Source: Thermodesulfobacteriota bacterium (GTDB lineage Bacteria > Desulfobacterota > Desulfobacteria > Desulfobacterales > C00003060). Taken from it: 64,000 nt of DNA. Below are positions 55,300-64,000 of this stretch, piece by piece (the stretch's first letter is position 1; each line of letters opens with the position of its first letter). Under the pieces are notes generated by a model. The model made no database searches. It saw only the letters and a program-made list of their open reading frames with translations, and was not told the DNA's origin. The translations under genes were made by a program, and so were the position numbers. Location of the stretch: positions 131,195 through 195,194 of the forward strand of contig JAXHVD010000004.1 of NCBI GenBank assembly GCA_034189385.1, read 5' to 3'.

Positions 55300-55820
55300 C
55301 CGTGAAGCTTTAAACTGCTCAGCACCCAGGCGCCTATTCTCGATCGCCCGCCGGCTCTCGGGACGCCGCCACTAGCTGTGGCAGCCGCTAAGAGACAGCA
55401 AAAGTCCCTGGCACCTCTTTTCAACACTCCAGAAAGTGCGGTCCTCTTCTATGAAGCCGAATATCATTTCTGGTCCTCCAAGAAGGTGGCCACAGCTTTT
55501 GTTATGATGTCACGCTCCCGGCGAAGGCGCTCAACTTCACACCTTAAACTGCGAACCTCCTCGTCTTGGGCATTGAGACAATCTGTACCCGGGAAGGCTT
55601 GCTCACCGTCTCTGTGCCGGTCGCGTTTCCACCGGCTGATGACACCTTTGCCTACAGTGAGATCTCGCTCAACCCTGGTCTTTGTGTTACCTAGCTCCAA
55701 TGCCAGTCGCACAGCCTCAACCTTAGACTGTCTTTCGTAGGGTTTTCCCATGTCCGAACACCTCCCATTACCTTATACATCTTAGCTGTTCGGTGTGTCC
55801 GCGATTCTGGGAAAGGGGCA
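55300..55820 (-). mobile_element. Degenerate IS3-family remnant (orfA 55464-55751 plus broken orfB start)
   Basis: KVEAVRL...SRWKR...AFPG...LRRERDIITKAVATF; -1 frame MIFGFIEE...; IR-like end at about 55794-55820. Confidence 0.8.
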
Positions 55821-56957
55821 TGGTGTGCAAGAGCTACAAGCCAAGATGTATGAGACGACCCTATGGGCCTTCTGTGGTACTAGAGATACCTTTTATATTC
55901 CGCCTACCTTCTTCTTTGTTGTGTGACATGTTTCCCCGCTGTTTTGTCGAAAATTCGTGTCCAGCACTTAGGTGAACCCAGGGTCGGGTCACTTTTGCTC
56001 TGTAACCATACGAAGGGGCGGCAGCACCGGAGCCGAGGTCGGTGTCTCATCCTAGGATTTAGTGTAGGTGCGGTGAGGGCACGTCTTGCCACCGGCTCCA
56101 GACTTCTGCCACGTAATAAACATACTAGCACAAAGCATGCCGAAGCTCTTAACAGACCTATTTAGAAACAACCGGTAGCCGCGATTGAGCAAAAACGTAA
56201 AATGGATTTTTGACAGCAACAAGGTGTGGGAAGCCAGCAAACAGCATCAAGGGGGATCGTTGGTACTTCCTAGGAATTGACTATTACGAAAAATATCAGG
56301 AAATTAGTGGTTGCCACCGGCTAGAGATGCAGCCGCCTCTCATGCTGTCTGAAAGGGTAAGTTGGAACTTGGATCCGCTCTCATTAAAGGGCGCAATTGA
56401 AAAGGTTAAGAGGACCGAAAAGACGAGAGACCATAACAAGCACCCATACCCTCCTGTGCAAGTCCTGCATCTGAGCTATCCGATCAAAATGACAGCTCGA
56501 CAGAGGAAATGGGATAGCTTGTCGCAAGACATCCTCTGGAATCAGAGATCCCCCTCCTAGATTTGTCCAGAGTACCCTAAAAGTTCGGCCTTTCAAATAG
56601 TTGCTTATGCATAGCGCCACTAAACATTCAGCGAAACCAAATGGCAACCCTATTAGCCTCGCTAAGATTCTCCACCGACAGAATCCAGGTGCAGATCATA
56701 GAGCCTGTTGGGCACCCCCGTGAGCTGGCCCTAGTCCCTCATCCGGCCGACCAGCGTGCTTACCGTCAATTTCTCCGTCCTGGGAAGATGACAGGTAAGA
56801 TTCACAAGAAGAGTTGAGCCGAGATTGGTTTTGAATATCCGAAAATTCATGCTTTTCAAATAGTTGCTCATGCATAGATACTATGCAGGGTCACTTGGGC
56901 GCTCCTTTGGTGTATAAGATTAATAACCAAAAACACAAGAACCAAAGGAGGAAAGCT

Positions 56958-58109
56958 ATGAAAAAAACCCAAGTGACCCTGGGAAAACAGGCTAACACAG
57001 GACTGGCCACATTGTACACAGCCTTTGAATTGAGCAACAAGAAGTGGAAGCTGGCATTTAGCAACGGCGACAAGGTTAGGCAGGTGACTGTGCCGGCAAG
57101 AGCCTTGGGCCACTTGCGTAGAGAGATAGACAAGGCCAAGAAGCGTTTTCAGATGCCCAAAAAGGTGCGGATCGTAAGCTGTTACGAAGCTGGCAGGGAT
57201 GGGTTTTGGTTGCACCGGTATTTGACCACTAAGGGCGTGGAGAATCTTGTGGTGGATTCTTCGAGCATTGAGGTCAATCGGCGCAAGCGGCGAGCCAAAT
57301 CAGACCGTATTGATGCAGGACAGCTTTTGAGGATGCTGATGCGGTATCATGGCGGTGAGAAGACGTTATGGTCAGTGGTTCGTGTGCCAACGGTGGAACA
57401 AGAGGATGCTCGTCAACTTCATCGTGAATTGGAGGCCTTGAACAAAGAGCGCACTTGTCATCGGAGTCGGATTCGGGCCTTTTTGATCCAGCACGGGATT
57501 CAGATCGGTAATCCAAGCAGGTTGGATTTCCTGAAGACTTTGGAGTCTCTTCGCACCTGGGATGGCAAGGTGCTCCCATCAGATCTCAAGGCTCGTGTTG
57601 TGAGGGAATACAAACGGCTGCAGATGGTAGAAGACCACATCAAGTTTTTGGACAAAGAGCAGGAGCAGCGGGTTAAAAGAGCTGACAGTTCATCGCTTCT
57701 GAAGGTTGCAGCACTCAGGAGACTGCGTGGGATAGGCCCCAGGAGTTCGTGGCTCTTTGCCATGGAGTTCTTCGGGTGGCGAAAGTTCAACAACAGGAGG
57801 CAGGTGGCGGGTGCTGCGGGCTTGACCCCCACCCCATATGACAGCGGAGGCAGTCGGCGGGAACAAGGTATAGGTAAGGACGGAAATCGGCGTGTGCGCA
57901 CAATGGCTGTTGAGATGGCATGGGGCTGGCTACGCTTTCAACCGCGCAGCAAGCTGAGTCGGTGGTTCAATAAAAGGTTCGCGCAAGGAGGCAGCCGGAT
58001 GCGGCGTATTGGCATTGTGGCCATGGCTCGCAGACTATTGATCGATCTTTGGAAATATCTTGACTATGGCACTGTGCCCGAGGGAGCAATTCTGAAAGCT
58101 CCAGCGTAG
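56958..58109 (+). CDS. IS110 family transposase/recombinase
   Basis: AFELS, CYEAG, KSDRIDA (RuvC-like), GLTPTPYDSG (Tnp serine); RBS AGGAGG. Confidence 0.93.
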   Translation: MKKTQVTLGKQANTGLATLYTAFELSNKKWKLAFSNGDKVRQVTVPARALGHLRREIDKAKKRFQMPKKVRIVSCYEAGRDGFWLHRYLTTKGVENLVVDSSSIEVNRRKRRAKSDRIDAGQLLRMLMRYHGGEKTLWSVVRVPTVEQEDARQLHRELEALNKERTCHRSRIRAFLIQHGIQIGNPSRLDFLKTLESLRTWDGKVLPSDLKARVVREYKRLQMVEDHIKFLDKEQEQRVKRADSSSLLKVAALRRLRGIGPRSSWLFAMEFFGWRKFNNRRQVAGAAGLTPTPYDSGGSRREQGIGKDGNRRVRTMAVEMAWGWLRFQPRSKLSRWFNKRFAQGGSRMRRIGIVAMARRLLIDLWKYLDYGTVPEGAILKAPA

Positions 58110-58139
58110 CAAGTACTAAGATGGCAAAGGTTTCGGTTC

Positions 58140-58305
58140 CATGGTTGGCAAAGGTGCCCGGGATAGTGCAGGGTGTTCTCACAGACGCCGTCGTCATAGA
58201 GGGGGCACCTTTCCAAGGTGGTTCAGCAAAGCGCTGCCTAGGCGCATGCTGCATCAGGTGTTCGACGCAACACAACGTCGGCACGGATAGAAGCTGGTAA
58301 AGGGC
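58140..58305 (+). ncRNA. Putative bridge/seek RNA of the IS110 element
   Basis: Two stem-internal loop-stem modules whose loops match the target and donor junction sequences. Confidence 0.7.
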
Positions 58306-58680
58306 TCTTGAGTCTGACGGTTAAAATGAACCCGCCAACGAACTGAGGCTAATCGTCTTCATCGAGACACAAGATAAATTGAGGAGGACAGCAGCTAATT
58401 ATTTGCACCAAAGAAAGCCCTTGACATGGGAGACTTACATAGAAGCACTATCGCCAATCGGCGTGATCAAAGAAGTGGTGTAGATAGACAGAGGAGACCT
58501 CGCATTTCAGAGAGTCTTGGGAATTGAGAACAATCGGGCATTATCTCTACGGTGGTGAAAATCAAGATCGATAGCATATACCAAACCTGCAGCCAGAACC
58601 GCACGGCAGACGCGATTGATAGCTGCAGCAATCTCTACTTTTCGCCAAACACCATGTTTACTGCATATGGACATGCAAAG

Positions 58681-58967: not shown

Positions 58968-59633
58968 TTACGCTTTCTTGAAAAACCTCTTCCGTCCAAA
59001 CCCAGCCAAACCAACCAGCCCACTGCCTAATAGCAGCATAGTGGCTGGTTCCGGCACAGGGCTACCTGGGTCGTTGATGAAACTCTCACTCCCTCCGCTG
59101 TCAAAGCCTTGCACGTGAATGCCGATACGCAATTCCCCAGAAGCCAACTCGGCAAGCACATCTGAAAACTCACCCCCGTCCTGCAAATCAAACAGAATTC
59201 CCAAATACTCTCTGGGATTCACGCCATTTGGCTGTTTTGGGGGGTCTGAATCTGCTGAAAAACCGGCCGTGGTCACAAAAGGCGGAAAGAGTGTGTTACC
59301 TCCAGGTAAGACTTCTGAATTGTCAGGGTTGCTAAATGAGACACCGGAAGACGAGTTGTCAATGGATGCTATCCCCAACAGCGTACCGTCGTCAAAGAAA
59401 ACATCACAAATCGAAGAGGGGGCAGGGCCTGTGTTGTGGAAAGTAAACAAAGCCCCACCTCCAGCGTCCTCAGTAACGTCTACCCAAAGTTGGGCCTCTC
59501 CAATCGCCGCATCCGTTGCCTTGTTGTTGGTGATGTTGTTGAATCCAAAAGGTATGGCATGAACAGGCGGAGCAATTAGCGATACAAAGACAATTGCCAC
59601 AAAATAAATTCTCATTTTCGCTCGCAGTTTCAT
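58968..59633 (-). CDS. PEP-CTERM sorting-domain exoprotein
   Basis: Signal peptide; C-terminal VPEPATMLLLGSGLVGLAGFGRKR. Confidence 0.92.
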   Translation of the reverse strand: MKLRAKMRIYFVAIVFVSLIAPPVHAIPFGFNNITNNKATDAAIGEAQLWVDVTEDAGGGALFTFHNTGPAPSSICDVFFDDGTLLGIASIDNSSSGVSFSNPDNSEVLPGGNTLFPPFVTTAGFSADSDPPKQPNGVNPREYLGILFDLQDGGEFSDVLAELASGELRIGIHVQGFDSGGSESFINDPGSPVPEPATMLLLGSGLVGLAGFGRKRFFKKA

Positions 59634-59789
59634 TTGATAATTCCTCCCCAGTCTCATTGCGGATCAATATTCAGTTGTTCACTGGTGCATTGTGGGTCTT
59701 GATTTCTTAACTCGTTCACAACAGTACCCAGATTGTCTCTTCCGTCCCATTATTCAAAATTGCGAGAAGTCTTACGGAGAGATGATACT

Positions 59790-59805: not shown

Positions 59806-60536
59806 GGAGAAGGCCCTGTAAAAAATAAGAATAAGAAACCCCGTTTTTGGTTAAATCTCTATTGCTTAAATCATTTAGCTGGTCGTGAAATTCCATAAAT
59901 AACGGAAGACTTTGGGAAGGGTAATTAATATGGTATGTAATTTATTTCCCACATTTTATGTACTTTTATGCCACATTATGATTAGATTCCATTCGAGAGC
60001 CATAGGCGGGGAAAAAGTGAAGTGGGTTCGGTTTTCCCATACCTGGGGGGGTGCTCACCATAGGATTTCAGGTGTGATCGCTTGCCAATACCACAGCAAA
60101 AACCGTCCGTGAAAATTCAAAGATTTTCGACGATTATGGCAGCCCTGGACAGAACACAGGTTTGTCTCCCAGATGGCACATGGGAAACGGTCCAGTCCGA
60201 TGGATGATTGCCTACCAGGTCTAGGATTAATCAACCAAATGATTTTATTTCAGATTTGTAACGAATACCACAAGCGTTGTCCAGCTCGCGGAGCCATCTC
60301 GCAGGCCTTTCCGTGAAAGGGGGGCAAGACGACGCTGTTGGGAACATTCACAAGAGGAGTTGAGTGGAGGTTGGTCCTGAATATCCGAAAATCATAGGCT
60401 TTCAAATAGTTGTCTGTTCACCGGGTTATCCACCCTCCACTGAAACCACACGGCAGCTGTCATCTATATAAGAAATCAAACATTCAGCCAGGTCTGCCCT
60501 GGGATGAGGCAGTTTTACGGTCAAACCTGCCGGTCT

Positions 60537-61949: not shown

Positions 61950-62212
61950 GTTGGTGGATTTGTTCCTCAGCGAATGATTGGAGACCCAGCTTCTGCTGAG
62001 AAAAGATACTCAGTATCGAAACGTTTTGCAACAACCAGTTACGATAGCATTTGGCTAGCTAAAAAATGCAGGTCTTTGAAATGGTTGGCTTCCATAGCAT
62101 AATCGCCAATCGGCATGATCAAACAAGCGCTTTATGTATACATAGCAGAGTCAACATGTAACGCCACTTCTCTGGCAAAGTTGCCACTACAACATGTTGG
62201 GTCTTCTAGCGG

Positions 62213-62274: not shown

Positions 62275-64000
62275 CTATTCTATATCAAGATCCGGCACGA
62301 AAGTCTGCATCGTATTAGGAGAAGCGTCAAGCGTAACGCAGTAGTCCCCCTCGTACTTCTCACCCCAAATCACTGCTCTACCAGGTGCCTCCATCACCTT
62401 TACATGGTAGTCGCCCGTCATAGGCAGCGTAACCGTCATCTCAAGGGGCAGTTTATCGTTGAGTCTCTTAAAGAGCCGAAGTCCATTCCCTAGGTTTCTC
62501 ATTATCAAGACAGCCCTTTGTCCGGCACCGTATGCCGGTGGACTCGATTCCAGCGTTACCGTAACCGTCTCTCTCTCGGTTCCCGTGAACTTGAACACAT
62601 CCATGTCTGGAGCGTATGGCCTCGGATCGTCTCCAAGGGTAGAGCAGAGAGTGCGAGCGAAACCCCCACAATTGGCAGAAGCGCAATCAGTGCCATTGCC
62701 TTGATAGGTTCCACCGGCTGAAGTGCACTCAATGGCGATGGCTTCCATACACGAACCGTCAGGCAAGCAACATGCACCCTCTGGCTGTGCACAATTGGCA
62801 GAAGCGCAATCAGTGCCATTGCCTTGATAGGTTCCACCGGCTGAAGTGCACTCAATGGCGATGGCTTCCATACACGAACCGTCAGGCAAGCAACATGCAC
62901 CCTCTGGCTGTGCACAATTGGCAGAAGCGCAGTCAGTGCCATTGCCTTGATAGGACCCACCGGCTGAAGCGCACTCGCTGGAAGTGCCCTCCGTGCAAGA
63001 ACCGTCGGGCATGCAGCACGCCCCCTCTGGTTGTGCACAATTGGCAGAAGCGCAGTCAGTGCCATTGCCTTGATAGGACCCACCGGCTGAAGCGCACTCG
63101 CTGGAAGTGCCCTCCGTGCAAGAACCGTCGGGCATGCAGCACGCCCCCTCTGGTTGTGCACAATTGGCAGAAGCGCAGTCACTGCCATCGCCCTGATAGG
63201 TTCCGCCAGCAGAAGCGCACTCTGTGGCACTGCCCTCCGTACAGGAGCCATCAGGCATGCAGCAGGCACCGGCCGTGATCTCAAGTACCATCACCGTGAC
63301 TGTGGCCTCATTCGACGTGGCACCTTCATTATCTTGTACCGTATAGGTGAAAGCGTCGTTTCCAGTAAAACCTGTGTCAGGCGTATAGGTGACAGTGCCG
63401 TCTAGATTGTTGATGACGCTGCCCTCACTTGGCCCTGACAGTATCGCCACCGATGTGGGATCGGTAGTGCCGTCGACGTCGACATCATTGCTAATGACAT
63501 TGATACTCACCGGGGTGTCTTGGTCCGTCGTTTCCAAGTCGTCATGTGCCACGGGAAGTTGATTCGCTGAACCAGTAGTCGTCAGCCAGACACATGGACT
63601 AACAATGTCGCCAGTTGGATGATGTGCCACAACCCTCCAGGTATACCTGCGGCCAGCCTCAAGACCGTCTACCGTGATCGAAGTAGACGAGATATTGTCT
63701 CCTATTCTCTCAAACGGGCTAACCACCCCACTGGCCAAGTAAACGTCGTATCCTGTGGCGCCAGCAACACCATCCCAGCTGAGAGTGACACTGCCGGAAA
63801 CGACATCACTGCCGGAAGAAGGATTCATGCTGTAAATGCCTTGGCGCAGTGTGGAAGGGATTTTTGTCATGGAGACTGAGTACGTCCCAGAGTGATCCAG
63901 ATTGTAGTCTTGGATAACTATAGTATAAAGCCCACTCTGTTCCAGCTGGTGGTCCAAACGACTACCACTGAGATCATAGGTGTATGCTTCAGCGGGTCCG
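62275..64000 (-). CDS. Large secreted modular protein, 5' end off window (FN3-like, Ig-like, Cys-rich repeats, PPC-like)
   Basis: Frame open to the window edge; WDGVAGATGYDVYL, NQLPVAHDD...TYTPDTGFTGNDAFTYTV, GACC repeats. Confidence 0.85.
   Translation of the reverse strand, partial: GPAEAYTYDLSGSRLDHQLEQSGLYTIVIQDYNLDHSGTYSVSMTKIPSTLRQGIYSMNPSSGSDVVSGSVTLSWDGVAGATGYDVYLASGVVSPFERIGDNISSTSITVDGLEAGRRYTWRVVAHHPTGDIVSPCVWLTTTGSANQLPVAHDDLETTDQDTPVSINVISNDVDVDGTTDPTSVAILSGPSEGSVINNLDGTVTYTPDTGFTGNDAFTYTVQDNEGATSNEATVTVMVLEITAGACCMPDGSCTEGSATECASAGGTYQGDGSDCASANCAQPEGACCMPDGSCTEGTSSECASAGGSYQGNGTDCASANCAQPEGACCMPDGSCTEGTSSECASAGGSYQGNGTDCASANCAQPEGACCLPDGSCMEAIAIECTSAGGTYQGNGTDCASANCAQPEGACCLPDGSCMEAIAIECTSAGGTYQGNGTDCASANCGGFARTLCSTLGDDPRPYAPDMDVFKFTGTERETVTVTLESSPPAYGAGQRAVLIMRNLGNGLRLFKRLNDKLPLEMTVTLPMTGDYHVKVMEAPGRAVIWGEKYEGDYCVTLDASPNTMQTFVPDLDIE
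62668..63270 (-). repeat. Five tandem 123-bp (41-aa) Cys-rich GACC repeats
   Basis: Visible in DNA and protein; units 2 and 3 match each other, as do units 4 and 5. Confidence 0.95.

Follow-up and report, generated by a model that had tools for sequence, protein, structure and literature searches.

Does a mobile element in a Thermodesulfobacteriota bacterium carry, behind its recombinase gene, an RNA in which its own target and its own ends can be read? The question is raised by a stretch of 64,000 nucleotides of contig JAXHVD010000004.1 (assembly GCA_034189385.1; hereafter the window, with positions counted from its first base), which contains an IS110-family element of 1,568 bp that extends from AG at 56876-77 to AG at 58444-45 and encodes a recombinase of 383 amino acids (56958-58109). 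A first-pass annotation had proposed that the 3' non-coding end encodes a bridge RNA, and the motifs on which it relied, i.e. the AG pair, the stem 58150-59/58203-12, GATAGTGC (58162-69), CATAG (58195-99), the stem-loop 58258-84, ATAGAAG (58287-93) and TTGACA (58421-26), all lie where it had placed them, with GCATC at 58251-55. Very probably, the element represents an RNA-guided (bridge) recombinase system of the IS110 family, has an IS1111-type layout and works like IS621. At the level of sequence comparison, we establish below where it begins and ends, that its gene is intact, that the RNA fold with its five helices is conserved and that the guides follow target and donor in homologs. In kind the element is a published one, in that 3'-encoded bridge/seek RNAs with readable loops are already known.

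Boundaries, predicted bridge RNA and guides

The element lies in a copy of a dispersed host repeat, the left half of which (56797-56875, + strand) ends with the bases CAT that are matched by the right target guide, and the right half of which (58446-58549, + strand) begins with the 7 bases that are read by the left target guide. Both halves are recognized by BLAST of the empty site against the genome and by nhmmer. Because intact copies of the repeat run straight across the insertion site, the element boundary is independent of the guide argument: CATAG-CACTATCGCC is present exactly at C36:3456 of the assembly and seven copies have two mismatches in 12 positions, and the empty site with an AG core that had been predicted is therefore real. 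The dinucleotide core AG (CT on the minus strand) is present at both junctions without any other duplication, and at the left junction (56876-56877, + strand) it is supported by the empty repeat copies and by AG at 81 of 82 homolog left ends; the empty sites and the homologs both point to a specific target. Homologous elements have the same boundaries, and three Cupriavidus copies have identical ends in different flanks. One contig of a DNA run that may be the source contains the left flank, the element and the right junction without differences, and in a second sample of the same study the right junction is covered. A boundary at the 5-bp repeat CATAG (56873-77/58438-42) was rejected: it would leave AAG, and 6 of the 9 pattern-matched repeat copies are without AAG at this spacing, the remaining ones being one copy with AAG and two that differ otherwise.

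For comparison we used 89 homologous loci, including the window's own, with recombinase identities of 49-70%. Ends were located by motif, the left in 82 loci and the right in 72, of which L021 was dropped as doubtful to leave 71. The RNA anchor was identified in 82 loci, including 80 that extend at least 250 nt downstream. After dereplication at 80% RNA identity 58 sequences were left, and exclusion of four truncated or divergent rows gave the structure alignment of 54. The non-coding lengths have medians of 83 nt at the left end (n = 82) and 369 nt at the right end (n = 71). In nine loci (L003, L014, L017-L020, L036, L052 and L077) the right end is 545-811 nt long, compared to 334 nt here, with additional sequence past the RNA.

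The predicted bridge RNA (58143-58339, + strand) is about 200 nt long, is enclosed by an outer helix (58144-49/58334-39) and contains five helices in the 54-sequence alignment, three from RNAalifold and two added by hand. Over its 30 pairs, 90.9% of the cells are paired and 23 pairs have two-sided changes, compared to 34-47% paired in a slid alignment control. The target-binding loop (58150-58212, + strand) consists of an outer stem (58150-59/58203-12), a 12-nt strand (58160-71), an inner stem-loop (58172-89) and a 13-nt strand (58190-202). The donor-binding module (58220-58332, + strand) is a multi-loop with a closing helix (58220-25/58327-32), which is 87.8% paired and includes one pair with 21 two-sided changes, and a central stem-loop (58258-84), which is 97% paired.

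Covariation between RNA and flanks was scored for elements with less than 80% RNA identity against 20,000 shuffled RNA-flank pairings, the left target guide receiving the best of three registers in observed and shuffled pairings alike; guide registers were picked after the data had been inspected. The three guide scores and two handshake scores that are given below with their shuffled values all have p <= 5e-5. The left target guide, GATAGTGC-A (58162-58170, + strand), pairs with the + strand of the right flank over 7 nt and with one core base, the second core position being mismatched (register d3), and in the family it matches 5.71 of 7 positions compared to 2.98 after shuffling (n = 49); a fixed register was rejected, giving a poorer fit of 3.8-3.9 of 7. 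This guide fits the flank in all six elements that were fetched later and stand outside the model, and two of nine plasmid copies are off-guide. It also matches the right flank of a 5'-truncated locus (L345, G445:C589) and of a locus with RNA and right end and no transposase match in the fetched stretch (L346, G409:C100:18328-18485). The right target guide, CAT-AG (58195-58199, + strand), has the minus strand of left flank and core as its pairing partner; at the five positions before the core, identity is found in 54, 50, 41, 33 and 33 of 54 sequences, the base adjacent to the core being the one that matches in all 54, and the score is 2.69 of 3 compared to 1.07 after shuffling (n = 54).

In the donor module, GCATC (58251-58255, + strand) matches the left end at 4 of 5 positions as left donor guide, and the family guide also takes in 58250, which is mismatched here. 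The first-pass annotation had regarded this match as the weaker one; its role is borne out by a family score of 4.28 of 5 compared to 3.50 after shuffling (n = 54), with covariation at positions -4, -3 and -2 (p = 0.0002 each). The right donor guide, ATAGAAG (58287-58293, + strand), is the same as the final 5 nt of the right end followed by the core; it is invariant in 54 of 54 sequences, its first five bases being the anchor used to choose the rows, and ATAGA-AG is found at 68 of 71 homolog right ends. Adjacent to the guides, the target-loop handshake bases are A and G (58200-58201, + strand) where the donor asks for A and T; in the family, the second base equals that of the donor in 48 of 54 sequences (fraction after shuffling, 0.68). 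The donor-loop handshake base C (58294, + strand) equals the first target base after the core (58446), and this identity holds in 47 of 51 sequences (0.47 after shuffling), the other four allowing a U:G wobble. In this copy, both loops have a fitting first handshake base and a mismatched second one. The two handshake tests reproduce the handshake rule described in PMC11208158.

In total, covariation with target or donor is seen for three of the four guides and for two handshake bases, the remaining guide being the same in all sequences. When the 324-nt non-coding end is dinucleotide-shuffled 20,000 times, GATAGTGC arises in 0.34%, ATAGAAG in 1.9%, CATAG in 23% and GCATC or GTATC in 43%, and the first three arise jointly in 1 of 20,000. 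These motifs were chosen after the fact, and the covariation across homologs is therefore the stronger test; the proposal that the loops act as guides passed it. What had been proposed earlier is thereby extended by the handshake bases, the multi-loop form of the donor module and the finding that the target is a repeat, and also by the apparent replacement of Asp by Glu in the active site, described below.

The register of the left target guide

The geometry of the target loop was analyzed in 47 homologs with a right flank. The core read by the right target guide lies 3 nt from the outer stem in all 47, and the opposite strand, which contains the left guide, is 12 nt long in 39, 13 nt in 7 and 14 nt in 1. 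Defining a clear register as at least 6 of 7 matches with a margin of 2, we find one in 31 of the 47 homologs. In 13 of these 31, as in the window, the register is d3, i.e. the left guide overlaps both core bases and the spacer base; in 14 it lies one base further out, in three it lies two bases further out without core pairing, and in one it lies one base further in. A quick tree requires at least eight changes of the register label, and the members of some close pairs carry different labels (L080/L082, L075/L084 and L006/L011). Part of the shift accompanies a shorter opposite strand (10 of 14 d2 cases), and for L073 the core was placed one base over in this analysis because the right end is 1 nt short.

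Wrong boundaries were rejected as the cause of this sliding, as a target hairpin is restored at the AG core in L084, L085, L073, L067 and L081; of nine joined sites that were folded, these five palindromic targets are restored exactly at the core and the other four are uninformative. The targets of L067, L073, L079, L081, L084, L085 and L088 are the right arms of G/C-rich REP-like hairpins, and the register without core overlap is concentrated among the elements that target such hairpins.

The chances are about evenly balanced that this very large and apparently uncharacterized clade forms a bridge-recombinase subfamily of its own, marked by an EEDD active site, a donor that hardly varies and a free register of the left guide relative to the crossover. 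In that same evenly poised reading, nine RNA positions read the target from -7 to +2, from -8 to +1 or from -9 to -1 (once from -6 to +3), and the right guide fixes the core. If this is true, only the strand held by the right guide would be positioned for cutting, insertion would be a one-strand exchange finished by the host, the natural variants would provide a test of two-strand versus one-strand models, and up to two more bases would be programmable on one side. More specifically, variants in which left guide and core overlap by 2, 1 or 0 bases bear on the choice between enzymatic cutting of the second strand and its resolution by replication. A sliding register was not found in the literature searched, with figures, some supplements and subscription papers outside the search; a survey of 86 bridge RNA models (10.64898/2026.10.21.760802) may include this clade.

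Ends, recombinase and host repeat

The left end (56876-56885, + strand) consists of a 7-nt extension, AGATACT, followed by the 3-bp inverted repeat ATG, and the right end (58438-58445, + strand) of the 3-bp inverted repeat CAT, a 3-nt extension, AGA, and the core AG. All 47 of 47 homologs agree with the inverted repeat at its first three positions, compared to 15-60% at later ones; the sub-terminal repeat matches at 6 of 12 positions here and at a mean of 6.0 of 12 in the 47 homologs, with only the first three conserved. TTGACA (58421-58426, + strand) is the predicted -35 box of a circle-junction promoter and is found in 43 of 47 homologs, TTGAC having formed part of the end-finding pattern. 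Circularization had been proposed to join this box to GATACT or TACTAT; the former (56877-82) is retained as the predicted -10 box, giving TTGACA-18-GATACT (the spacer is 17 in 31 of 47 homologs), and the latter is rejected at 21 nt from TTGACA. On plasmid NZ_CP049319.1 (~659000-664300; L102, L103 and L097), three copies of a 42%-identical relative form a head-to-tail array. At the tandem junctions one A is missing and the promoter spacer is 16 instead of 17, the right end of L073 being equally short; such a short junction, seen in one record only, could be a dead junction favored by selection, the product of slipped recombination or an error of the assembly.

When the minus strand is read, CT is the core of target and donor alike, and ATA and TAT flank the donor, an arrangement described for IS110-group donors (PMC11208160). 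The plus strand, opposite to the CT core, carries both gene and RNA, which explains the 'top-strand match first' order of IS1111 seekRNAs (PMC11187229). This order and the 7-nt and 3-nt terminal extensions are the IS1111 layout as given in the same paper, in which elements that combine a 3' region with short and imperfect repeats are also mentioned, and a multi-loop donor module is described for many IS1111 orthologues (PMC11208160).

The recombinase gene (56958-58109, + strand) is uninterrupted, in agreement with the claim of an intact enzyme, and profiles and Foldseek place its product in the IS110 family; residue counts and an alignment to IS621 point to E24, E77, D116, D119 and S296 as the five catalytic positions. 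A start at 56958 is favored over the ATG at 56883 because it is preceded by the ribosome-binding site AAGGAGG (56945-56951, + strand) and because the homologs have 381-383 amino acids. The protein exceeds the cut-off of NCBIfam NF033542 (189.9 bits versus 140) and that of PF02371 and is below that of PF01548 (22.9 versus 29). The predicted structure (mean pLDDT 80.9) has IS621 (8wt9, E 2.6e-12) and ISCro4 as its top Foldseek matches at about 20% identity. E77, D116, D119 and S296 are invariant in 208 of 208 homologs, and the first position of the catalytic tetrad is Glu in 201 of 207 and Asp in 6. D116 and D119 align weakly with the IS621 pair, and S296 aligns with the IS621 serine motif (G--P----SG). 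From the motif and its place at the end of strand 1 in the predicted structure, we infer that E24 is equivalent to D11 of IS621. Glu at this position appears compatible with activity because Glu-bearing multi-copy relatives, present as three identical copies in different flanks, have moved recently. Glu as the first catalytic residue of a clade was not found in the literature searched, subscription papers being outside the search. The clade comprises at least 7,968 protein clusters at E <= 1e-60, and a match is present in 3 of 400 other genomes of the phylum (E <= 1e-40). Only 60 of the 120 closest proteins are labeled PF01548, and surveys that require this domain may therefore under-sample the clade.

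The host repeat gives 26 nhmmer hits on 15 contigs, with the seed copies and the present junction counted. It is an uncharacterized modular intergenic family, several copies of which are close to contig ends; pieces in the window are at 56560-56650, 56797-56875, 58446-58600, ~60340-60410 and ~62050-62140, and Rfam gave no match for four repeat regions. One copy (L340, G000:C6:117222-117282) carries an additional AAG precisely at the insertion point, the remnant expected if such an element were deleted between its two CATAG repeats; this is a single case, and other copies carry other small indels near this point. Beside copies of the same repeat, two ~90-bp pieces of decayed transposase genes (G000:C52:303-393 and C10:3989-4081), 81-82% identical, are by their sequence traces of earlier elements of this clade. 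A joint of 56845 and 58450 in the DNA-run contigs is another repeat copy, and a second insertion site is absent from the contigs of four runs. BLAST of the non-coding end against plasmids gave no match, and viral contigs contain no relative of the recombinase; junction-motif hits in viral contigs were rejected as chance, comprising 233 loci without a transposase, four of them with TTGAC in an unrelated long phage gene.

Elsewhere in the window, a 95-amino-acid open reading frame (55464-55751, minus strand) about 1.1 kb from the element resembles by eye an IS3-family orfA remnant. The minus strand also encodes a 229-amino-acid protein (58968-59657) with what we take to be a PEP-CTERM-like tail and a 560-amino-acid protein (62275-63957) with, presumably, tandem cysteine-rich repeats (GACC-PDGSC).

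Proposed mechanism, alternatives and known systems

Combining these data with what is known of characterized relatives, we suggest that a circle forms in which the -35 box of the right end would be joined to the -10 box of the left end, and that a single transcript would cover the gene and then the RNA, being processed or ending near 58143-58340. Both strands of CAT-AG-CACTATC would be paired by the target loop, and those of the circle junction by the donor loop. Cutting via a phosphoserine at S296 would take place beside the core on the strands that the two right guides hold, these strands would be swapped, and the handshake bases, pairing only after the swap, would drive insertion. To complete the junction, the second strand would be exchanged as well or, an outcome to which the sliding left guide points, the host would replicate or repair it. 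In published work, which is divided on this point, the second strand is finished by Holliday-junction resolution (PMC11208158, PMC13626964) or, alternatively, exchange involves mainly one strand (10.1101/2025.10.25.684509, 10.64898/2026.08.31.748434); the sliding left guide would fit the latter view better. The passages covered of 10.64898/2026.08.14.744561 and 10.1101/2024.06.21.599552 contain nothing further on this clade. On the present explanation, the element landed in a copy of the host repeat to which its guides are a perfect match.

Several observations weigh against a bridge system that works in this manner. The register of the left guide is not clear in 16 of the 47 homologs, several of which match at only 3-4 of 7 positions. 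The right donor guide does not vary, so that its identity and position, and not covariation, speak for its role. The next donor-loop base, the second handshake position, is without covariation (0.18 versus 0.16 after shuffling). Related elements are not independent, and the p-values are overstated. No RNA run was listed for the element, no circle joint was found in the contigs of four DNA runs, and the two tandem junctions on a Caballeronia plasmid, the only head-to-tail ones seen, are 1 nt shorter than the predicted circle junction. The present copy has four mismatches to its substrates (58170, 58201, 58250 and 58252), and its assembly contains one perfect (C36:3456) and 11 one-mismatch targets that are empty.

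The last of these observations lead to the alternative that the element has the same origin and is recently disabled or weakly active, having inserted once and then lost pairing in the donor loop or the handshake. The element is a single copy in the 4.1-Mb assembly by DNA, protein and RNA-model searches, its perfect target is empty, the positions mismatched at 58201 and 58250 are matched in 48 and 46 of 54 homologs, and the spacer of its predicted promoter is longer than that of most homologs. However, the frame is open and retains the five catalytic positions, the two ends and the two promoter boxes are intact, the mismatch at 58252 is shared by 9 of 54 homologs, and 82-92%-identical proteins are present in several datasets; we regard a disabled copy as possible and rather doubtful. 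We are similarly doubtful of the form of this idea in which the element is silent because its promoter exists only on the circle, for which it speaks that no + strand promoter was found in the linear form. It is unlikely that the working RNA is the target half only (~58143-58215), with the ends recognized mainly by the protein, and similarly unlikely that the donor module is part of a precursor or needed for one step only. A short target-only RNA is abundant for four IS1111 elements and sufficient for ISEc11 (PMC11187229), and a target-loop-only RNA makes up 90% of the CazIS110-1 reads (10.1101/2025.10.25.684509); however, covariation ties the left donor guide to the left end, and the handshake base of the donor loop follows the target, so selection keeps the donor module paired, and the inverted repeats are only 3 bp long. 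Finally, the matches could be by-products of chance or of short local copies of the flanks, without a guiding role: two of the four motifs are common in shuffled sequence, the folding energy of the non-coding end is not significant (z -1.5) and no Rfam family matches the element. This is very improbable, as the covariation is position-specific, involves two different strands, extends over some 50 diverse elements and falls in loops whose place is fixed within a fold that itself covaries.

Taken as a single element, the system in the window is one more bridge recombinase for which RNA, target and donor are readable together, and its interest is carried by the clade features, i.e. the Glu site, the sliding guide and the handshake in a group with a 3' RNA. 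Its apparent kin in ISfinder, judged by eye from motifs and table order, are ISRel9, ISMno20, ISAzs35, ISMno25, ISGdi7 and ISSph11, which are named in no paper of the literature searched, where no RNA or activity data for them turned up. Five of the six adjoin CYEAGRDG-type proteins in Supplementary Table 1 of Durrant and share C-terminal motifs; ISRel9, ISSph11 and ISMno20 are labeled IS1111 in the source data of Siddiquee, and all six stand apart from the core IS1111 block in the identity matrix.

With the IS1111 seekRNA elements ISEc11, ISKpn4, ISPst6 and ISPa11 (PMC11187229) the element shares a 3' non-coding region, a top-strand match 5' of the bottom-strand match, extensions of 7 nt on the left and 3 nt on the right, and a junction promoter (predicted here), and ISPa11 likewise targets a host repeat. 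In contrast to these elements, it has inverted repeats of 3 bp instead of 11-13 bp, so that strict IS1111 membership fails, a protein of 383 instead of 330-350 amino acids, and an apparent catalytic set other than DEDD; donor guides and handshake bases are not described for them in the covered portions of PMC11187229. With IS621 and ISCro4 (IS622) it shares a RuvC-like domain, a Tnp domain with a catalytic serine and a CT core (PMC11208160, PMC11208158, 10.1101/2025.05.14.653916), four guides in the order left target, right target, left donor and right donor, handshake bases, ATA/TAT donor triplets, a circle-junction sigma70 promoter (predicted here) and, in this copy, a 9-nt left target guide that includes the core. 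It differs from them in its ~20% identity, in an RNA downstream of the gene with both opposite to the CT core, in the multi-loop donor module, in Glu at the probable first catalytic position and in a left-guide register that varies among relatives. An element with a 3' RNA and a 'reversed' guide order thus keeps the IS621 geometry, including donor guides and handshake bases, and this bears on the doubt voiced in PMC11187229 that both groups share a mechanism.

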